Source: an uncultured Candidatus Rokubacteria bacterium
GTDB lineage: Bacteria; Methylomirabilota; Methylomirabilia; Rokubacteriales; DASRDR01
Reading direction: 5' to 3'
NCBI GenBank assembly: GCA_963826115.1
Contig: CAWGVS010000010.1
Location: 480,001-544,000, forward strand
DNA length: 64,000 bases
Part shown: piece after piece, positions 39,354 to 61,207 of the stretch
Numbering within the stretch: the first letter of the stretch is position 1
How the letters are laid out: each line of letters begins with the position of its first letter
The notes under the pieces: generated by a model
Database searches by the model: none
What the model saw: only the letters and a program-made list of their open reading frames with translations
What the model was told of the DNA's origin: nothing
Program-made: the position numbers and the translations under genes

Positions 39354-42300
39354 CTACGCGCCTCGGACCGTGCCCTCGCCTTGGGAGTCCGGCCGGTACG
39401 CCTCCAGCTCCTCGGCGACCACCGCGCTCACCGTTGCCTCTCCGGTGTCCCGGTCCTGGTGGGTCGCGACGGCCGCCATGATCCGCTCGACAGGCTCGCG
39501 CTGGAGCGGCGGCAGAGGCGCGCCGATCGCCGCCCGCTCGACGGCGGCAGCTCCGAGCAGCCGGGCGGCTCGCGCGTGCTGCGCGCGGGCGAATGCGGCC
39601 TCGCCGAGCACCTCCAGGCAGCACGCGATCCCGAGGCGATCGGCGAGATCCGACCGGATGCCGAGGCTTTCGCGGCCGAGGTGCTCCGCCCGGTCGAGAT
39701 CGCCTCCCCAGAGGGCCACCGAGGCCAGCGCGAAGAGCGAGGCGCCGATGCCGCGCCGGTCTCCCAGATCCCGGCGGAGCGCCAGGGCTTCCTCCGCCAG
39801 CTGGCGGGCGTCGTCGAGCGCGCCGGTCACGCCGAGCAGCAGCGCGAGACCGTTGAGCGCCACGCCCATCCCCCGACGGTCACCGACCAGCCGGCGGAGG
39901 CGGAGGCTCTCCTCGTACATGGGCCGCGCCCCCGCCACGTCGCCCTGGTAGTGAGCGGCATTGGCCAGGTTGTTGAGCTCCTGGGCCGTGCCCCAGGCGT
40001 GATCGTTGGCCCGGAACAGCGCCAGCGCCTCCTGACCCAGGACCACGGCCCGCTCGAAGTCGCCCTGGAACCGCCGGGTGCGCCCGAGGTTGTTGAGGGT
40101 CAGGGCGAGTCCCTCGTCGTCACCGGCCGCGCGCCAGGAGGGGATGGCCTCCGAGAAGAACGCTTCGGCATCCGCGTAGCGCGCCTGATCGTGGGCGATG
40201 ACGCCGAGATTGTTCAGGCTGCGGGCGATATCCCGGGGATCGCCGATCTGCCGCCGGAGCCCGAGCGCCTCGGTGTGATGCGCCGCCGCGCTCCGGTAGT
40301 CCCCCACGTCGCGCGCGAGGTTGCCGGCGCCATTCAGCGCACGTGCGCGCTCCGCCGGCGCCTCGTGACCCGCGTCGGCCAGGATCGCCCCGAGCCACTT
40401 GAGTCCCTCGCGGAGCCCGCCGCGCACTTCCCAGAAGCGCCAGAGCGCCGCGCCGAGCCGGAGACGGAGCACGTCACTCGCCCGGTCCTGGTCGCGCCAG
40501 CTCAGCGCGGCCTGAAGGTTGTCGTACTCGGTCTCGAGGCGATCGAGCCACGCGATCTGCTCGGGTCCGCGGCTCCGGCGCTCGGCTTCCTCGGCCAGCG
40601 CCAGGAACCACTGCTGGTGCCGGCCGCGGAGCCATGCGACCTCGCCGGCCGCCTGCGCCCGCTCCTGGCAGTACTCCCGGATCGACTCGAGCAGCCGATA
40701 CCGGGCGACCGCGGCCCCGGAGTCGCCGGTCTCGACGAGGACCATGGACTTGTCCACGAGCTGGGCCAGGAGGTCGAGCGCCTGGGAGGCGTCGAGCTCG
40801 GGTCCGGCAGAGATGCCCTCGACCGCCTCGAGGGTGAACCCACCCGCGAACACCGACAGGCGCCGGAGCAGCGTCTGCTCCGGCTTGGAGAGGAGGTCGT
40901 GGCTCCAGTCCAGCGCGGCGCGCAGCGTCTGCTGGCGCGGCTCGACTGTCCGGCTGCCTCCCGTGAGGAGCCGGAACCGGTCGTTCAGCCGCGCCACGAT
41001 CTGCTCGACGCGGAGGACGCGCACGCGGGCCGCCGCCAGCTCGATGGCGAGCGGGAGGCCGTCGAGCCGCCGGCAGAGCTCGGCGACCGAGGCGGCATTC
41101 GCGGCCGTGATGGCGAAGGTCGGCGCCACCAGCCGGGCGCGCTCGACGAAAAGCCGGACGGCCTCGGACCTCGCCAGGCGATCGGGCGCCACCTCGCGCT
41201 CGTCGGGCACGGCGAGCGACGGCACCTGGAACGTGCTCTCGCCCGGGATGTTGAGGCGCTCGCGGCTGGTCGCCAGCACCGCGAGCCGGGGACACGCGCG
41301 GAGCAGCGCCTCGACGAGCGCAGCGCACGTCTCCACGACGTGCTCGCAGTTGTCGAGGATCAGGAGCGCCTGGCGGCGGGCGAGCGCGGTGGCCAGGAGC
41401 TCGCGGGGCGGCCGGGCGGCGTCCTCGTGGAGACCCAGGGCGGCCGCGACGGCCTGCGCCACCAGGGCCGCGTCCGGCACGGTGCCGAGCTCGACGAACC
41501 AGACGCCGTCCGGGTAGCGCTCCCGGAGCTGCGGGCCCGCCGTGAGGGCGAGCCGGGTCTTGCCGACGCCGCCGGTGCCGAGGAGCGTCACCACCCGGTG
41601 GGCGCCGAGGAGGCGGTCGACGTTGCGCAGCTCCTGCTCCCGGCCGATCAGGCTCGTCACGGGAAGGGGCAGCGTGACCGGCGCGCGCTCCGCCGACGCA
41701 TCGGTCGGGCCCACGGGCTCCGTCGCGCCGGGCGCCCGCTCCGGGGCCAGGCCGTGCTTGTCGATGCGATACCGGAGCTGGCTGCGACTCAGACCCAGAC
41801 GGGCCGCGGCGCGCGAGACGTTCCACCCCGTGTCACGCAGGACCTGTTCGACCCGTTCCGGTCCGATCTCGCCCGCGGCATCCGGCTCCGCCTCTGCCGC
41901 GTCTGCGGCGCGCCCCTTCGAGCGGGCGGGGGACGGGGAGAGCTCCAGGGCCGCCGCCGGCAGCTCGGACGCCTCGGTGAGGAGCACGGCGCGGGTGATG
42001 ACGTTCTTCAGCTCGCGGATGTTGCCGGGCCACTCGTGACCGCGGAGCGCGGCGCGCGCGTCCGCCGTCAGCGTCTTCGGCGGCCGCGCGGTCCCGGCGG
42101 ACGCCTCGCGCAGAAAGCGCTCGGCGAGGGGCAGGATGTCGTCCGGCCGATCGCGGAGGGCCGGCAGCCGCACCGTGATCACCGCCAGGCGGTGGTAGAG
42201 GTCCGAGCGGAACCGGCGCTCGCGGGCGGCGACCTCCAGGTCCTCGCTGGTCGCCGCGATGATCCACACGTCGACCGGCTCACCGCGCGTCGCCCCCAGG

Positions 42301-42785
42301 CGTCGCACCGTGCCTTCCTCGAGGACCGTCAGGAGCTTGGCCTGGGACTCCGTCGGCAGGAGCGCGACCTCGTCGAGGAACAACGTGCCGCCGCCCGCCT
42401 CCTGCACGAGCCCGGGCTTGGCGTGCTTCGCGTCCGTGAACGCGCCACGCTCGAAGCCGAACAGCTCGGCTTCCAGGAGGTTCGACGGGATCGCCGCGCA
42501 GTTGACGTCGACGAAGGCGCCCTCGGCCCTTGGACCGGCCCGGTGGAGCAGGCGGGCCACCATGCTCTTCCCGACCCCCGTCTCGCCCAGGAGGAGGACC
42601 GACGCAGGCCGCCGGGCCTGGGCCTGGCCGACGAGGAGGCGCCGGAGCGTCTCGCGGACGCCCGCCATCGCCGAGCTCTCCCCGATGAGCTCGCCCAGGC
42701 GGTCGATGTCCACGATGGCGTCCCCCGTTTCCTCGGCCCGGTCCCTGGAAGGTCTCGCGGCGGGGCGTCGACGCCCCGCGGCCAT
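39354..42785 (-). CDS. Sigma54-interaction AAA+ / Fis-HTH / STAND (NB-ARC-like) ATPase / TPR fusion; start may be GTG 42713
   Basis: GETGVGKS, GAFTDA, LFLDEV, WPGNIREL, HTH NVSRAAARLG, then GTGGVGKT, LILDNCEH, GLPLAIELAAAR, TPRs. Confidence 0.9.
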   Translation of the reverse strand: MAAGRRRPAARPSRDRAEETGDAIVDIDRLGELIGESSAMAGVRETLRRLLVGQAQARRPASVLLLGETGVGKSMVARLLHRAGPRAEGAFVDVNCAAIPSNLLEAELFGFERGAFTDAKHAKPGLVQEAGGGTLFLDEVALLPTESQAKLLTVLEEGTVRRLGATRGEPVDVWIIAATSEDLEVAARERRFRSDLYHRLAVITVRLPALRDRPDDILPLAERFLREASAGTARPPKTLTADARAALRGHEWPGNIRELKNVITRAVLLTEASELPAAALELSPSPARSKGRAADAAEAEPDAAGEIGPERVEQVLRDTGWNVSRAAARLGLSRSQLRYRIDKHGLAPERAPGATEPVGPTDASAERAPVTLPLPVTSLIGREQELRNVDRLLGAHRVVTLLGTGGVGKTRLALTAGPQLRERYPDGVWFVELGTVPDAALVAQAVAAALGLHEDAARPPRELLATALARRQALLILDNCEHVVETCAALVEALLRACPRLAVLATSRERLNIPGESTFQVPSLAVPDEREVAPDRLARSEAVRLFVERARLVAPTFAITAANAASVAELCRRLDGLPLAIELAAARVRVLRVEQIVARLNDRFRLLTGGSRTVEPRQQTLRAALDWSHDLLSKPEQTLLRRLSVFAGGFTLEAVEGISAGPELDASQALDLLAQLVDKSMVLVETGDSGAAVARYRLLESIREYCQERAQAAGEVAWLRGRHQQWFLALAEEAERRSRGPEQIAWLDRLETEYDNLQAALSWRDQDRASDVLRLRLGAALWRFWEVRGGLREGLKWLGAILADAGHEAPAERARALNGAGNLARDVGDYRSAAAHHTEALGLRRQIGDPRDIARSLNNLGVIAHDQARYADAEAFFSEAIPSWRAAGDDEGLALTLNNLGRTRRFQGDFERAVVLGQEALALFRANDHAWGTAQELNNLANAAHYQGDVAGARPMYEESLRLRRLVGDRRGMGVALNGLALLLGVTGALDDARQLAEEALALRRDLGDRRGIGASLFALASVALWGGDLDRAEHLGRESLGIRSDLADRLGIACCLEVLGEAAFARAQHARAARLLGAAAVERAAIGAPLPPLQREPVERIMAAVATHQDRDTGEATVSAVVAEELEAYRPDSQGEGTVRGA

Positions 42786-42896
42786 TGGCTAGCCAGTGGC
42801 TGACCAGCGGCTGACCCGCGTCGCGCCCGAGTCGGGCCCGCCCGAGATCCTCGCCATCCTACCGATTATTCAGGCGAAACACCAACGCAGACGCCC

Positions 42897-42912
42897 TGGC
42901 ACTGCCCTTGCC
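42897..42912 (+). promoter_or_regulatory. Sigma54 (-24/-12) promoter
   Basis: TGGCACTGCCCTTGC is TGGCAC-N5-TTGC (GG-N10-GC), about 107 nt upstream of ATG 43019 and divergent from a sigma54 activator gene. Confidence 0.75.
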
Positions 42913-43018
42913 CTAGCGTGTCCCCGTGACGTCGCGCTCGAGACCGAGCCCGACGGTCGAGAGAGGCACACAACGGGCCGGTCCTCCTCGCAGGAGGACG
43001 GCAACCCAGGAGGTCGCC

Positions 43019-44059
43019 ATGAAGCTTCCACCGAGCCCGCCGCTGTCGAGCCTGCTGGTCGCCGCGTTTCTGGCCGTCGTGGGATGGCTGGCCTTCACGG
43101 CATTCGCCGGCCCCCAGACCCCGATCGACGGGGCCGTGTCCGACCCCGCGCCGGTCATCGTGCCCCAGGCCGGGCATCAGCACGCGCCGCTCCCGGCTGG
43201 CGCTCCGGCCGCCGCGGTGGCGCCCAAGGCCGGCGCCGACGCGCCTCGGGCCGCCGCCCCGGCCGGCCGGGTGCTGGGCGCGGAGAGCGAGATCGGGAAG
43301 GGGACCGTCTCGACGTACACGGAGATCAGCGCGCAGGGCGAGCTCCGGACGATCGGCATCGTCTTCTCGCCGGGCGCCCTGGACGGCCTGCCCACGGACG
43401 GCTCGGACTTCCACCACTGCTTCGACAAGAACCAGGACGGCGCCGTGGACCGGGCGACCGAGTGCCTCCACAGCTTCGAGCACGTGCTGCCGCTCCCGGA
43501 TGCCGTGGCGCGGCGCAAGGACGTGCCGTTCAAGTGGGTGCTGCTCAACTGGAACCCGCACGGCCACATGCCGCCCGGCATCTACGACCTGCCGCACTTC
43601 GACGTGCACTTCTTCATGGAGCCGATCGCGAAGATCTTCGCGCTCCAGGCCGGCCCGTGCGGGCCGGAGCTGATGCGCTGCGATCAGTTCGAGGTGGCGA
43701 AGCAGCCGGTGCCGTCGAACTACATCCACCCCGACTTCAAGGACGTGGACGGCGTGGTGCCGGCGATGGGCAACCACCTCGTGGACCTGACGGGCCCGGA
43801 GTTCCAGAAGCAGCCCTTCACGCGGAGCTGGATCTTCGGGTCATACGGCGGGCGGATCATCTTCTACGAGGAGATGGTGGCCCACCGGACCCTCGTCAAC
43901 ACGACCCAGTCATGCTCGCCGATCAAGCAGCCGAAGGGCGTGGCGACGGCCGGTTACTACCCGACCCTCTCGTGCCTCCGCCACGACGCGACGACGGGCG
44001 ACACCACGGTGTCGCTCGAGCAGTTCGTCTTCCGCGCCGCCAGCGCCCCGGAGCCCTGA
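43019..44059 (+). CDS. Exported His/Cys-rich protein (DUF5602/TTHB210-like)
   Basis: GGAGG RBS, signal peptide, NWNPHGHMPPGIYDLPHFDVHF, VPAMGNH, IFYEEMV. Confidence 0.78.
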   Translation: MKLPPSPPLSSLLVAAFLAVVGWLAFTAFAGPQTPIDGAVSDPAPVIVPQAGHQHAPLPAGAPAAAVAPKAGADAPRAAAPAGRVLGAESEIGKGTVSTYTEISAQGELRTIGIVFSPGALDGLPTDGSDFHHCFDKNQDGAVDRATECLHSFEHVLPLPDAVARRKDVPFKWVLLNWNPHGHMPPGIYDLPHFDVHFFMEPIAKIFALQAGPCGPELMRCDQFEVAKQPVPSNYIHPDFKDVDGVVPAMGNHLVDLTGPEFQKQPFTRSWIFGSYGGRIIFYEEMVAHRTLVNTTQSCSPIKQPKGVATAGYYPTLSCLRHDATTGDTTVSLEQFVFRAASAPEP

Positions 44060-44076
44060 GCGGCGGCCTGACGGGC

Positions 44077-44124
44077 CGGCGCCCGCTCGCGCGCGATCCA
44101 GGTCGCGACCGCGAGCGGGCGCCG
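44077..44124. terminator. Hairpin between convergent genes
   Basis: CGGCGCCCGCTCGCG / CGCGAGCGGGCGCCG perfect 15-bp inverted repeat. Confidence 0.6.
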
Positions 44125-44141
44125 CCGCGCTTCCGCAGCCT

Positions 44142-44834
44142 CTATCGGCGCGGGGCCGGCTTCTTCCGCGACGTGGCCCGACCCTTCCGGGCCGCGGAGG
44201 CTCGCCGGGGCCGGCGGACGGCCCGCACCTTCCCGGTGCCGCCACTTCCGCAGAAGAACCGGTCGCCGCCGTCGGACTCGAGCCCCGAGACGTTCACGCC
44301 CGGCGGCATCGCGAGTCGCTCCAGGACCTTTCCCGTCCGGGGATCGACCCGCCGCAGCTCGCTCTCGTCGTCCTCCCAGGTGCCGTGCCAGAGCTCGCCG
44401 TCGACCCAGGTGACTCCGGTGACGAAGCGGTTCGACTTGATGGTGCGAAGGATCGCCCCGGTCTCGGGATCGATCTGATGGATCTTCCGGTCCCGGTACT
44501 GCCCCACCCAGAGTGTTCCCTCGGCCCACGCGAGCCCCGAGTCGCCGCCGTCGCCCGGCGCCGGGATCGTGGCGAGCACCCGGCCGGTCTTCGGATCGAT
44601 CTTCTGGATGCGACGCTCGGCGAGCTGGAACAGATGGCGGCCGTCGAAGGCCGTTCCGGCATCGCCGGCGACGTCGAGCGAGCGCACCGTCTTCCCGCTC
44701 GCCGGATCGAGGGCCTTCAGCGTGGCTCCGGCGGCGAACCAGACGCGCTTCCCGTCATAGGTGACGCCGCCGACGGCGTCGACACCCGGAAAGGGTCCGT
44801 ACTCCCGGACGATCTCGGCCGCGGTTGGTTTCAT
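44142..44834 (-). CDS. Glutaminyl-cyclotransferase-like beta-propeller protein
   Basis: Repeated G(V/L)TxDG-xLW blades with IDPxTG motifs. Confidence 0.75.
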   Translation of the reverse strand: MKPTAAEIVREYGPFPGVDAVGGVTYDGKRVWFAAGATLKALDPASGKTVRSLDVAGDAGTAFDGRHLFQLAERRIQKIDPKTGRVLATIPAPGDGGDSGLAWAEGTLWVGQYRDRKIHQIDPETGAILRTIKSNRFVTGVTWVDGELWHGTWEDDESELRRVDPRTGKVLERLAMPPGVNVSGLESDGGDRFFCGSGGTGKVRAVRRPRRASAARKGRATSRKKPAPRR

Positions 44835-47883: not shown

Positions 47884-50796
<2,913 letters not shown>

Positions 50797-50996: not shown

Positions 50997-55196
<4,200 letters not shown>

Positions 55197-55203
55197 CGGG
55201 GCC

Positions 55204-55309
55204 ATCGTACCCGCCGAGCGACCCCTGTCATAGCCGGTCGCGCGCGCCGTCTCCGAGCCGCCGCCCGGCCCTGCGGCCCTTGACACCCTCGTCGGCCGCC
55301 CGGCACGAT
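55204..55309. promoter_or_regulatory. Divergent sigma70-like promoters
   Basis: Minus: ATGACA (55231-55226), 16 nt, TACGAT (55209-55204). Plus: TTGACA (55280-55285), 18 nt, CACGAT (55304-55309). Confidence 0.45.
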
Positions 55310-57873: not shown

Positions 57874-59943
57874 CTAGACTCGCTCGACCTCCACGCGGTT
57901 GTCGTGGAAGACCGCCCCGCCGCCCATGTCCGAGTCCCGCTCGTCCACGGTGACGTTGACGGTCGCGTCGCCCTTCACGTGGCGCGGCCAGCGGCCCTTG
58001 GTGCTGGCCACCAGGCCCCGGCGGACGCGGTCGGACACCTCGACGCGCGCGACGAACGCGCCGCGGTCGTTGAAGACGCGCGCCTCCTGCCCGGTCTCGA
58101 GACCGCGCGCCGTCGCGTCCTCCGGGTGGATCCGGACGATCGGCGGCCCCGACCGCTTCATCTGGTCGCCGACGTTGGCGAACAGGGAGTTCAGGAAGTA
58201 GTGGTCGGCCCCGGCGATCAGCGCCAGCGGGTAGCGCGCGGCGAGCGGGGTGTCCCGCTGGGCCGCCTCGTGCGGCGGGGTATACCCGGCCAGCGGGTCG
58301 AGGCCCGCCTTCACCATGCGCTCGGTCCGGAACTCGAGCTTGCCGGACGGGGTGGGGAAGCCGTGGGCGAACGGCACGAACGGCTCGGGGTACTTGACCC
58401 GCATCCAGCCGCGCGCCTTCAGCGCCTCGAGGGTGATCCCGTCTAGCGCCGGATGCCCGGAGCCGAGGACCTGGCGCGCCAGGTCGTCGTCGCTGTCGTA
58501 CAGCGCGGGCGCGTCGAGCCCGAGGCGCTTCGCCAGCCGCCGGAAGATCTCGGTCGACGAGAGACACTCGCCCGGCGGCGGCACGGCCGGCTCGTTCCAG
58601 GAGATGTAGAGGTGCCCGTAGGCGATCTGGAGGTCGGCGTGCTCGAGCTGCATGGTCGACGGCAGGACGATGTCGGCGTACTCGACGGTGTCCGTCCGGA
58701 AGTGCTCGACCACCACGGTGAAGAGATCGGGCCGCTCCAGGCCGCGCCGGATCTTCGACTGGTGGGGCACGCTGGCGAGCGGGTTGCTGGCGGAGACGAA
58801 CAGCGCCTTGACCGGCGGGTTGTCGAGATCGAGGAGCCCCTCGCCGAGCCGCGTCATCGTCAGGACGCGCGTGCCGGGGCGCCGCAGGTCGTCGCGGTAC
58901 AGGGCCGGCCAGTCGACCCCGAAGAACCCGCGGGTGTCGTACCCGGCCCCACCGCCGGGATAGCGCCAGTCGCCCGTGACGCCGGGAATGCACGTGATGG
59001 TGCGGACGGCCATGCCGCCGCCGCCGTGTCGCTGAAGCCCCATGGTCAGCCGGATCCCGGTGGGCCGCGTGTGGGCGATCCGCTTCCCGAGGTCGACGAT
59101 CGCCTCGACCGGGAGGCCGCAGATGTCGGCGACGCGGTCCGGCGGGTACTCGAGGATGCGCGCGCGGAACTCGTCCCAGCCCAGCGTGTGCTGGCCGATG
59201 AACTCCTTGTCCTCCGCGCCCTCGGCGAGCACGACGTGGAGGAGGCCGAGCGCCAGCGCGGCGTCGGTCCCGGGGATCGGCGCCAGGTGGGTGTCGGCGG
59301 CGTCCGCGGTGCGGGTCCGGATCGGGTCGATGACGACGAGGCGGGCGCCCTGCTGGCGCGCCATGGTGATGCTGCGCCAGAGGTGGAGGTTGGTGCTCAG
59401 CGTGTTGCTGCCCCAGAGGACGATGAGCTTCGAGAACCGGAGCGTCTCCGGGTCCATCCCGACGCGGTTGTCGCCGAGGGTGTAGCCGGTGCCGACGCCG
59501 CCGGCGATCGTGCAGATCGTCATCACGTGCTGCGACGTCCCGAGCACGTTCCACAGCCGGCGCCCCGCGGCGTAGCAGCCCTGGAGGAGGCCCATGCTGC
59601 CGGAGCCGAGGTAGGGCCAGATGGCCTCCGCGCCGAACTCCCGAATGATGCGGTCGAGCCGCTCGGCGATCTCGTCGAGCGCGTCGTCCCAGGAGATGCG
59701 CTGGAAGGTTCCGTGCCCCTTGGGGCCGACGCGTCGGAGCGGATGGAGGAGGCGGTCCGGCGACTGGCTGTAGGCGACGTAGCCGTTCACCTTGTTGCAG
59801 AGCACGCCGCGCGTGAAGGGATGGTCGGGGTCGCCCCGGAGGTCGACCGCCCGACCGTCCTTGACGGTGACGATCCAGCTGCAGGTGTCCGGGCAGTCCA
59901 GCGGGCACGCCCCCAGGACCCGTCGCGATCCGTCCCCCGCCAT
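57874..59943 (-). CDS. Molybdopterin oxidoreductase (uncharacterised cytoplasmic DMSOR-family clade)
   Basis: CPLDCPDTC...LCNK, TIC Cys ligand, PTPSGKLEF; no Tat signal; GGAGG RBS. Confidence 0.9.
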   Translation of the reverse strand: MAGDGSRRVLGACPLDCPDTCSWIVTVKDGRAVDLRGDPDHPFTRGVLCNKVNGYVAYSQSPDRLLHPLRRVGPKGHGTFQRISWDDALDEIAERLDRIIREFGAEAIWPYLGSGSMGLLQGCYAAGRRLWNVLGTSQHVMTICTIAGGVGTGYTLGDNRVGMDPETLRFSKLIVLWGSNTLSTNLHLWRSITMARQQGARLVVIDPIRTRTADAADTHLAPIPGTDAALALGLLHVVLAEGAEDKEFIGQHTLGWDEFRARILEYPPDRVADICGLPVEAIVDLGKRIAHTRPTGIRLTMGLQRHGGGGMAVRTITCIPGVTGDWRYPGGGAGYDTRGFFGVDWPALYRDDLRRPGTRVLTMTRLGEGLLDLDNPPVKALFVSASNPLASVPHQSKIRRGLERPDLFTVVVEHFRTDTVEYADIVLPSTMQLEHADLQIAYGHLYISWNEPAVPPPGECLSSTEIFRRLAKRLGLDAPALYDSDDDLARQVLGSGHPALDGITLEALKARGWMRVKYPEPFVPFAHGFPTPSGKLEFRTERMVKAGLDPLAGYTPPHEAAQRDTPLAARYPLALIAGADHYFLNSLFANVGDQMKRSGPPIVRIHPEDATARGLETGQEARVFNDRGAFVARVEVSDRVRRGLVASTKGRWPRHVKGDATVNVTVDERDSDMGGGAVFHDNRVEVERV

Positions 59944-60133
59944 GGCGCCGTCCCTCCTGAAACTATGCTCCACACCGCGCCCTCGCGGATCAATTACCTG
60001 GGAGGTAAGGGCCCGGCGGGCGGCCGGGGCGCTATCATGAAAGGACTCATGGACCGGCTGATGGTCGTTCGAGTCGGGGCGTGGCGGCTCTCGCGGCCGT
60101 CCAGCCAGCCGCCGGCCCGCTGCGGGTAGCCGG

Positions 60134-61207
60134 ATGGGACGGGCGCGGCTCCGCGACCTCGGCCTTCGCACCGGGCAGCTCCCGCCCGGGCCGCTCAACG
60201 CCATCACCGACGTCGCCGACGTACGCGTCGGCCACGCGACCGTCGTCCACGACACCCCCTCCGTCGCGCGCACCGGCGTGACCGCGATCTGGCCGACGGA
60301 TGCGGACGTCTGGACCCATCCCGTGGCCGCCGGGTACCACTCCTTCAACGGCAACGGCGAGATGACCGGCGCGCTCTGGCTCGACGAGCAGGGGCTGCTG
60401 GCGACGCCCGTGTGCCTCACCAACACCCACTCGGTCGGCGTGGTCCGGGACGCCGTCGTCGCCTACGCCGTGCGGGAGCGCGTGCCGCAGCCGTGGCTCC
60501 TGCCGGTCGTGGCCGAGACCCACGACGGCTGGCTCAGCGAGGCGGACCGGTTCCCGGTCACGGCGGCCCACACCTTCGCGGCGCTCGACGTCGCCGCGGG
60601 CGGCGCGGTGGCGGAGGGGTGTGTGGGGGGCGGCACGGGCATGATCTGCCACGAGTTCAAGGGCGGGATCGGCACGGCGTCGCGCCGGGTCGCGGCCGCC
60701 GGCGCGAGCTGGACCGTGGGCGCGCTCGTGCAGGCGAACTACGGCTCGCGGGACCTCCTGCGCGTCGACGGCGTGCCGGTGGGGCTCGAGATCGGCCGCG
60801 ACGAGGTGCCGTCGCACCGCGGCATTCCGGCCCACGAGGGATCGATCATCGTGGTGCTGGCGACCGACGCGCCGCTCTTGCCGATCCAGTGCCGGCGGCT
60901 CGCCCAGCGGGCGACGGTGGGCCTCGCCTGGGTCGGCGGCATCGGCGCGAACGGAAGCGGCGACATCTTCCTCGCGTTCTCGACCAGCAACCGCGTGGCG
61001 CTCGCCGCCCCCCGGTCACGGCTCGAGATGGTCGCGCCGGACGAGATGACCCCGCTCTTCCAGGCGGCGGCGGAGGCGACCGAGGAAGCGATCCTCAACG
61101 CGCTGACCGCGGCCGAGACGACCACCGGCCGGTCCGGACGCACGGTCCACGCGCTGCCGCTCGACCGGCTGCGTGAGGTCATGCGCCACTACCGGCGCGC
61201 CGACTAG
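60134..61207 (+). CDS. DmpA/P1 family aminopeptidase
   Basis: NAITDVADVRVGH, GGGTGM, FKGGIGTASR, NGSGD autocleavage site. Confidence 0.92.
   Translation: MGRARLRDLGLRTGQLPPGPLNAITDVADVRVGHATVVHDTPSVARTGVTAIWPTDADVWTHPVAAGYHSFNGNGEMTGALWLDEQGLLATPVCLTNTHSVGVVRDAVVAYAVRERVPQPWLLPVVAETHDGWLSEADRFPVTAAHTFAALDVAAGGAVAEGCVGGGTGMICHEFKGGIGTASRRVAAAGASWTVGALVQANYGSRDLLRVDGVPVGLEIGRDEVPSHRGIPAHEGSIIVVLATDAPLLPIQCRRLAQRATVGLAWVGGIGANGSGDIFLAFSTSNRVALAAPRSRLEMVAPDEMTPLFQAAAEATEEAILNALTAAETTTGRSGRTVHALPLDRLREVMRHYRRAD

Follow-up and report, generated by a model that had tools for sequence, protein, structure and literature searches.

The window analysed here, a stretch of 64,000 nucleotides from contig CAWGVS010000010.1 of an uncultured Candidatus Rokubacteria bacterium (GCA_963826115.1), contains a regulator gene, P0001, and a divergently transcribed gene, P0002, on either side of a compact control region. 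P0001 encodes an intact bacterial enhancer-binding protein (bEBP) cassette joined to an intact STAND (signal transduction ATPases with numerous domains) module that ends in tetratricopeptide repeats (TPRs). Its prediction as a sigma-54 activator paired with the divergent promoter ahead of P0002 is well supported by comparison with related loci. The locus comprises the following features:

39354-42785 (-): regulator gene P0001, longest open reading frame (ORF), 1143 aa
39546-40349 (-): TPR region, putative sensor, residues ~813-1080
40899-41609 (-): STAND NTPase of NB-ARC type, residues 393-629
41757-41855 (-): HTH_8, Fis-type DNA-binding helix-turn-helix (HTH) in mid-protein, residues 311-343
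42171-42686 (-): Sigma54_activat AAA+ domain, residues 34-205
42429-42446 (-): sigma-54 contact loop GAFTDA, residues 114-119
42786-42816 (no strand assigned): candidate enhancer (upstream activating sequence), three 11-bp-phased units TGGCTAGCC, TGGCTGACC and CGGCTGACC, predicted to be bound by the HTH
42856-42887 (+): conserved, relatively A+T-rich block just upstream of -24
42897-42911 (+): -24/-12 element TGGCAC-N5-TTGC (TGGCACTGCCCTTGC), predicted sigma-54 promoter, start expected near 42923
42981-42999 (+): hairpin GTCCTCCT-CGC-AGGAGGAC in the 5' untranslated region (minimum free energy fold), with one arm like an anti-Shine-Dalgarno (SD) and one like an SD sequence
43019-44059 (+): predicted target gene P0002, ATG at 43019, 346 aa, SD AGGAGG at 43008-43013

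The P0001 regulator and its control region

The initial annotation had the protein opening directly with a sigma-54 AAA+ domain, free of REC, GAF and PAS domains, and continuing through a Fis-type HTH to a second, STAND-type ATPase with TPRs. The Pfam scan agrees at each step. PF00158 (E 9.4e-59) is followed by AAA_lid_14 at residues 211-289, HTH_8 (E 7.8e-12), NB-ARC (PF00931, 30 bits, above the cut-off of 23.5) and matches to TPR_12 (5e-30), TPR_10 and TPR_MalT, and the scan gave no REC, GAF or PAS domain and no N-terminal sensor domain. Within the sigma-54 AAA+ core, Walker A (GETGVGKS) lies at residues 67-74 and the Walker B DE at 138-139, and the contact loop at residues 114-119 does read GAFTDA rather than GAFTGA, as had been noted. 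The STAND part has a P-loop (GTGGVGKT) at 403-410, its Walker B aspartate at D478, and the TSR (506-508) and GLPL (576-579) motifs of an NB-ARC domain. NCBIfam models matched only the bEBP core, as that of many named regulators, and all scored far under their cut-offs.

Conservation extends over both halves of the protein. In 32 of 32 homologues with the full architecture (36-86% identity), both Walker A/B sets, GAFTDA, sensor II, TSR and GLPL are invariant. The same holds for core residues G67-K73, D138, E139 and the sensor II residues R257 and E258, and for HTH residues A327, L330, G331, R334 and R338. The real start of P0001 is probably the GTG at 42713 (V25), giving a protein of 1119 aa, because the P0001 database cluster has this length and because the start of a 72%-identical orthologue in genome G054 aligns to V25, with an in-frame stop codon just upstream. 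From this start, the intergenic distance to the -24 element is 183 bp.

The -24/-12 element had been described as near-consensus; it is an exact match and the only one in the window, where 0.06 were expected and 6 of 100 shuffles gave at least one. The three candidate enhancer units stand at -111, -100 and -89 relative to the -24 element. The G054 genome, which belongs to a different family of the same class, carries the P0001 orthologue divergent from a P0002 homologue (73% identical) with TGGCAT-N5-TTGC (TGGCATCCCGCTTGC) on the target strand. When the two loci are aligned, TGGCTnnCC-type units occupy all three positions in the present genome (G000) and positions -100 and -89 in G054, at identical distances. 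The block at 42856-42887 is also conserved between G000 and G054 and is possibly a bending site or one for integration host factor (IHF) or a similar protein; three HU/IHF genes are present in the genome. No sigma-70-like promoter or intrinsic terminator was matched within 42600-44300. The hairpin ends 9 nt ahead of the real SD, its fold z of -1.94 is marginal, and it is partially conserved in G054, where its CCTCCTCGC part is retained. Its CCTCC arm could pair with either AGGAGG.

Divergent promoters beside the fused family

The 6.24 Mb assembly (72% G+C) carries a single rpoN. Of its 27 aligned bEBP cores, seven, dispersed over the genome, are fused to STAND modules. The six fused cores other than P0001 are 54-60% identical to it, begin directly with the AAA+ domain and carry GAFTDA; they lead proteins of 1357-1432 aa in the order AAA+, HTH_8, a segment of ~200 aa, AAA_16 and TPR (TPR_MalT). 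One of the six lies in the window:

50997-55205 (-): second STAND-bEBP paralogue, 1402 aa, with GAFTDA core, HTH_8, ~200-aa segment, AAA_16 and MalT-like TPR

All seven fused cores fall into a single clade (support 100/99), whose sister is a REC-containing bEBP with GAYTDA, and this topology suggests a single origin. Their Walker A reads GKG or GKS, where the other bEBP cores of the genome mostly have GKE. As tblastn detected no similarity at E <= 1e-10 between the STAND parts of P0001 and those of the six paralogues, the same bEBP cassette is joined to two distinct STAND types.

A check put forward with the initial annotation was whether -24/-12 motifs are enriched in the divergent regions of homologues, and the outcome was strongly positive in three collections of loci (4/7, 12/18 and 25/39). 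Motifs were scanned with GG and GC fixed and one mismatch allowed. Exact TGGCAC-N5-TTGC occurs 42 times genome-wide against ~10.5 expected from base composition, 26 of these outside crude gene calls that cover ~75% of the DNA. At four of the seven paralogues, a divergent motif lies 111-154 bp from the start (three exact, one with a single mismatch). Another, L003 (upstream of G000 C12:608280), is preceded at 282 bp by TGGCAT-N5-TTGC on its own strand, which may point to autoregulation or to a small leader ORF.

The first comparative set consisted of the loci returned by the phylum genome search, with the ambiguous L092 uncounted and L113, from an unpublished genome, entering only among the loci that lack a motif; no conclusion depends on the unpublished genomes. 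A divergent motif was present at 12 of its 18 bEBP-STAND loci, and no motif was found anywhere at 12 of 12 loci that have a STAND-TPR module without the bEBP core. The second set took 40 further places from the same search in order of E-value, all in published genomes other than G000 and each with an uninterrupted reading frame of 1300 aa or more; 39 of them had at least 250 bp of upstream sequence. A divergent motif lay within 400 bp at 25 of the 39 (8 exact) and a motif in the same orientation at one, and 19 of the 25 divergent motifs fell 119-160 bp from the alignment anchor. The G000 background of 197 motifs amounts to 1.58e-5 per strand-bp, or ~0.006 per locus and orientation and ~0.25 in 39 loci; the divergent motif is thus enriched ~100-fold beside the family with an orientation bias of 25:1. 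Enrichment on this scale, with such a bias in orientation and so fixed a distance, would be hard to explain other than by a pairing of regulator and promoter.

Further elements recur at the AAA_16-branch loci, to which the six paralogues belong. An inverted repeat, GGTGKT-N9-MCACC, lies ~70-100 bp upstream of -24 at 7 of the 25 loci that have a promoter, compared with 0.1% of random windows, and CCACCACC occurs at 10 of the 25, against 1.3%; other loci show CTGTCGAA...TTCGACAG. The A+T fraction of these promoters is 0.58-0.62 at -30 to -10, against ~0.3 elsewhere. Upstream of -24, the strict IHF consensus was met in 3 of 25 loci and a looser pattern in 6 of 25, and because the strict consensus occurs in just 3 we do not claim an IHF site. 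The predicted enhancer, bendable spacer and -24/-12 element are ordinary sigma-54 promoter anatomy.

Several findings weigh against the pairing of P0001-type regulators with such promoters. The scan rule was our own choice, and since the comparative loci are related, the locus counts overstate their independence and yield no clean P-value. Two of the seven paralogues, including the second copy in the window, have no motif within 1 kb at up to two mismatches. At up to one mismatch, 14 of the 39 second-set loci are without a motif, as are two of the four closest orthologous loci, in G095 and G108. The G108 orthologue (51% identical) is preceded by another STAND gene. The G095 orthologue (L088, G095:C93:24062-27376), from the same genus and 70% identical, has neither a nearby motif nor a P0002 homologue within 1.5 kb; it contains two in-frame TGA codons and may be decaying, or the TGAs may be assembly errors. 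Because these paralogues, orthologues and second-set loci have no motif nearby, the regulator-promoter layout is common rather than universal. Among public sequencing runs, none contained half or more of the sampled words and 20 contained part of the stretch (best share 0.28), one of which is an RNA library. The four runs compared with the locus are stored as contigs and gave only fragments. Those in the RNA library come from relatives at <95% identity, fall on the coding part of P0002 and give no start, strand or level.

GAFTDA is shared by all seven STAND-fused paralogues, and 9 of the 27 bEBP cores have D at position 5 of the GAFTGA loop in a genome where one rpoN serves all. It is also the loop of DVU2106, which Kazakov et al. 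list among the variants expected to stay active (PMC4641369) and which, under the name OrpR, is described as operating with sigma-54 RNA polymerase (PMC8359166). Because all 32 family members compared have it and it serves a sigma-54 activator, GAFTDA is, on these comparisons, probably no defect. The least probable of the readings we considered is that the G-to-D change has uncoupled the AAA+ core from sigma-54; P0001 would then be a regulator of sigma-70 type or a repressor, and the motif would be there by chance or belong to another bEBP. VfmH, which also has GAFTDA, lends this some substance, as RpoN was undetected in its pull-down and the authors left the effect of G-to-D open (PMC10714721); the 6 of 100 shuffles with a match in the window point the same way. 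The sigma-54 dependence of OrpR argues against uncoupling, as do the enrichment, orientation bias and stereotyped distance of the divergent motif, its absence from the 12 STAND-TPR loci without a bEBP core, and the conservation of promoter and target in G054.

Predicted targets

Since the genes that follow P0002 converge on it, the output of the predicted promoter would be this single gene; the neighbours of the locus in the window are unrelated, ordinary metabolic genes. The initial annotation described P0002 as an exported His/Cys-rich protein. Export is supported by a hydrophobic helix at residues 9-27 (signal or anchor) and an AFA-G site after it, but the His/Cys enrichment is only moderate, with 14 His (4.0%) and 6 Cys (1.7%) compared to 2.3% and 0.8% in the crude genome gene set. 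A disordered Ala/Pro linker at residues 39-67 leads to a beta-rich TTHB210-like/DUF5602 domain at residues 83-339 (window 43265-44035 (+)). P0002 itself scores below the cut-off for PF18197 (E 0.072, 14.2 bits, cut-off 26.6) and its G054 orthologue reaches 24.9 bits; PF18197 is matched at E <= 1e-3 by 32 of 53 aligned P0002 relatives and is carried by the nearest Atlas clusters (score 0.94).

The P0002 family has 1189 representatives at E <= 1e-3. Among relatives, H183, H193, H197 and H253 are nearly invariant and D195 is invariant, and this His/Asp cluster may form an extracytoplasmic metal site. The structural model is confident, with a pLDDT (predicted local distance difference test) of 87.3 and most 10-residue blocks of residues 83-339 above 95. 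Foldseek against the PDB gave a best match of only E 9e-3 at a template modelling (TM) score of ~0.15, VIA-align a best Z of 4.2 among 48,161 chains, and a profile search of PDB sequences a chance-level match only. None of these is a credible solved match, and such searches do not by themselves show a new fold.

Other family members face other genes. In G115, the P0001 orthologue (52% identical) has an exact motif in divergent orientation, and the gene behind it is a different one, without a Pfam match. In the AAA_16 branch, one protein family recurs behind the divergent promoter at 13 of the 25 second-set promoter loci and at one G000 locus:

Same-family partner genes: downstream of G000 C6 532060-532074 (-); L196, L199, L202, L206, L207, L209, L213, L217, L224, L225, L228, L231 and L232

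Its members have no Pfam match and are ~165-200 aa long, with an N-terminal signal or anchor, a helical domain and a conserved FRARQQ-type motif. This protein seems to have been the ancestral partner in the AAA_16 branch and could conceivably act in feedback. The remaining predicted targets are varied and include a fatty-acid hydroxylase, a GDSL lipase, an SBP56-like protein, a class III aminotransferase, Ros/MucR and SoxY, and an LPG_synthase_TM-type membrane protein appears twice, once in G000:

Varied targets: L201, L205, L208, L221, L223, L233 and L234; L002:863-2014 (-)

The last of these lies beside a tandem pair of regulator paralogues at G000 C12:91862-104063 (L002), which are ~2.6 kb apart, each with its own divergent sigma-54 motif. 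One faces the LPG_synthase_TM gene and the other a 159-aa membrane protein; the ORF after the latter looks radical-SAM-like by a CxxxCxxC motif read by eye.

The STAND-TPR module and its possible mode of control

The STAND-TPR module is shared with many other regulators. Among the best 120 listed relatives of the P0001 module, PF00158 is present in 34, its own cluster P0003 included, and the remaining 86 have class III cyclase, BTAD/SARP (Streptomyces antibiotic regulatory protein), LuxR, XRE, OmpR-type or kinase domains, or none. Because the module is common to SARP, LuxR, XRE and cyclase proteins, the bEBP cassette can be regarded as one more swappable STAND effector. Of the 8000 database clusters scored for the AAA_16 branch, 7568 match at E <= 1e-30, and all of the best 120 except P0276, P0278 and P0279 carry PF00158 together with PF13191. 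As the family spans thousands of database clusters, P0001 is no one-off. Named fusion records are annotated only as 'sigma 54-interacting transcriptional regulator' and come from metagenome-assembled genomes of Methylomirabilales, Rokuibacteriota or Methylomirabilota. Although very large, the family is uncharacterised, and to date it is recorded from one uncultured soil phylum. A related-loci search with P0001 returned matches that were nearly all to the STAND-TPR part only (genome contigs of Actinomycetes, Chloroflexota, Eremiobacterota and others), with the bEBP part covered only at L020 and L042 on genome contigs and L132 and L156 on metagenome contigs, and gives nothing firm on the range of the family outside the phylum; the close orthologues for which gene context is given here all come from the phylum genome search. 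No characterised example had been known to the initial annotation, and the searchable full-text literature, which leaves out subscription-only papers, the original STAND survey among them, likewise yielded no bEBP-STAND fusion. The bEBP and STAND parts and their logic are already known; their combination and its scale appear undescribed.

The best solved relative across the nucleotide-binding oligomerisation domain (NOD) and TPRs is AfsR (8k60_I, E 4.5e-10), whose structures (8k60, 8jke) show a SARP-NOD-TPR protein with the same order of N-terminal transcriptional effector, NB-ARC-type NOD and TPR. The P0001 module aligns over its full span (query 29-675 to AfsR 325-972), and close relatives of the module carry BTAD/SARP. 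The effector differs: that of AfsR is an OmpR-type winged HTH plus BTAD that recruits the sigma-70 holoenzyme, and that of P0001 is a sigma-54 AAA+ motor plus HTH_8, so that P0001 has two NTPase engines. Neither PF00486 nor PF03704 is among the 25 of 28 Pfam matches shown for P0001 or in the Pfam list of cluster P0003.

On the bEBP side, P0001 resembles the minimal proteins PspF and HrpR-HrpS, which also have the AAA+ core first, no N-terminal sensor and then an HTH, and its best PADLOC match is the RtcR_PspF2 core. The pspF-pspA layout, with the regulator gene divergent from a sigma-54 target promoter, is that of the P0001 locus. PspF is controlled in trans by PspA; unlike PspF, P0001 has a STAND-TPR module of ~770 aa fused in cis behind the HTH. 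Control from the C-terminal side is in itself not unprecedented, because LevR-type bEBPs have their regulatory domains C-terminal to the sigma-54 AAA+ core. LevR is controlled by phosphorylation of phosphotransferase system (PTS) regulation domains and PTS EIIA/EIIB domains; its DNA-binding domain is N-terminal and it has no STAND NTPase. OrpR of Desulfovibrio vulgaris is sigma-54-dependent and has GAFTDA, and its gene is flanked by divergent target operons (PMC4641369, PMC8359166). The likeness ends with loop and layout, since OrpR relies on an iron-sulfur cluster for sensing (PMC8359166) and lacks a STAND-TPR module.

The six paralogues resemble MalT and the 'large ATP-binding regulators' of cyclase-AAA_16-TPR/LuxR type, with which they share AAA_16 and TPR_MalT and a cyclase fold before AAA_16; P0001 differs from the MalT type in having an NB-ARC/AfsR-type NOD, no AAA_16 and no cyclase-fold domain. 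MalT is a ligand-gated, ATP-dependent oligomerising transcription factor with a C-terminal LuxR effector that works with sigma-70. The cyclase fold resides in the ~200-aa segment between HTH_8 and AAA_16 (window 53601-54203 (-); aligned in L002-L005, L104-L112, L114 and L115), which has no Pfam match even at E <= 5. Its model is confident (pLDDT 85) and has the class III nucleotidyl-cyclase fold, matching CyaB (3r5g_B, E 4e-11, TM 0.67) and giving 188 PDB matches in all at E <= 1e-3. No Asp is invariant in an alignment of 17 sequences, and the metal-binding Asp residues, as placed by the cyclase motifs, look replaced. The modelled segment is probably a pseudo-cyclase, and perhaps a dimerisation module.

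The label 'NLR-like' (nucleotide-binding, leucine-rich repeat-like) in the initial annotation is loose, because the module is an AfsR-like NB-ARC plus TPR and no PADLOC defence model beyond generic TPR matches it. In the 2023 PADLOC release, only generic bEBP-core and TPR models match P0001 and no defence-type STAND model does, although absence from that library does not exclude a role in defence. An immune sensor of this kind would detect a phage or foreign molecule through the STAND-TPR module and turn on a membrane-acting or exported effector through the bEBP. The architecture of STAND, repeat sensor and swappable N-terminal effector is compatible with this, as are the many family targets that are small exported or membrane proteins. 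We nevertheless consider it quite improbable, given that no PADLOC model matches the STAND part, that seven paralogues are dispersed in one genome, and that the window neighbours are ordinary metabolic genes. The range of family targets, which takes in the aminotransferase, GDSL lipase, SoxY, SBP56-like protein and fatty-acid hydroxylase, and the closest solved relative AfsR, a developmental and antibiotic regulator, also speak against immunity.

Taken together, the whole is best explained, and with somewhat better than even confidence on our part, by P0001 being a one-component sigma-54 enhancer-binding protein in which a minimal PspF-like cassette is the N-terminal effector and an AfsR-like STAND switch at the C-terminus takes the place of the usual N-terminal sensor. 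HTH_8 would bind the three phased repeats at 42786-42816. On the model of MalT, AfsR and other STAND proteins, a signal read by the TPRs would flip the STAND nucleotide switch, and oligomerisation of the NOD would gather the AAA+ cores into an active ring. The ring would use ATP to open the sigma-54 holoenzyme complex at 42897-42911, with transcription starting at ~42923, a step for which the promoter-regulator pairing has the comparative support given above. The output would be transcription of one gene, that of the exported TTHB210-like P0002 with its conserved His/Asp cluster. Gating by ligand-driven STAND oligomerisation is the part of this scheme that we infer. Two considerations count against it: the results do not separate activation by oligomerisation from release of inhibition, and STAND oligomers are not known to be hexameric, which makes templating of the AAA+ ring hard to see.

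It is possible, if rather unlikely, that the STAND-TPR module is instead an autoinhibitory clamp or a partner-binding scaffold that holds the AAA+ core off until a signal arrives and does not itself promote assembly, with promoter and target the same. All of the support for a sigma-54 activator with a divergent promoter fits such a clamp equally well. Many bEBP regulatory domains act negatively, and the N-terminal domains of NtrC1, DctD and NorR hold the core off. For NorR, one study reports repression of the AAA+ ATPase by the GAF domain (PMC2941729). The invariant STAND Walker A/B, TSR and GLPL motifs point to a working switch rather than a passive clamp, without excluding the latter. STAND modules with N-terminal effectors are, moreover, generally described as activating by induced proximity.

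More tentatively than for P0001 itself, the STAND-bEBPs might be a signalling class of their own, with the STAND NOD templating or licensing the sigma-54 AAA+ ring within one polypeptide. The cassette would have been joined to at least two STAND types (AfsR-like NB-ARC, and pseudo-cyclase plus AAA_16) and have radiated into thousands of regulator-promoter-target cassettes, making up about a quarter of the sigma-54 inputs of this genome (7/27). The ancestral target of the larger branch would then be the exported helical protein of ~170-200 aa, which may feed back in an envelope loop like that of PspA and PspF.

Both bEBPs and STAND proteins are textbook oligomer-assembly switches that have hitherto been studied apart. 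An abundant fusion in which both catalytic sites are invariant and the target promoter is adjacent makes control of the ring from behind the HTH testable. The bEBP cassette joins SARP, LuxR, XRE, cyclase and kinase domains in the list of STAND effectors, and an uncultured soil phylum gains dozens of predicted sets of regulator, enhancer, promoter and target per clade. Cassettes as compact as these (one regulator, ~180 bp of control DNA, one output gene) would be attractive as orthogonal, tightly off sigma-54 switches once their signals are known.

The second paralogue in the window is flanked by a peroxidase-family protein (47884-50487 (-), PF00141, 867 aa), which is catalase-peroxidase-like with two matched stretches, and by a molybdopterin oxidoreductase (57874-60426 (-)).

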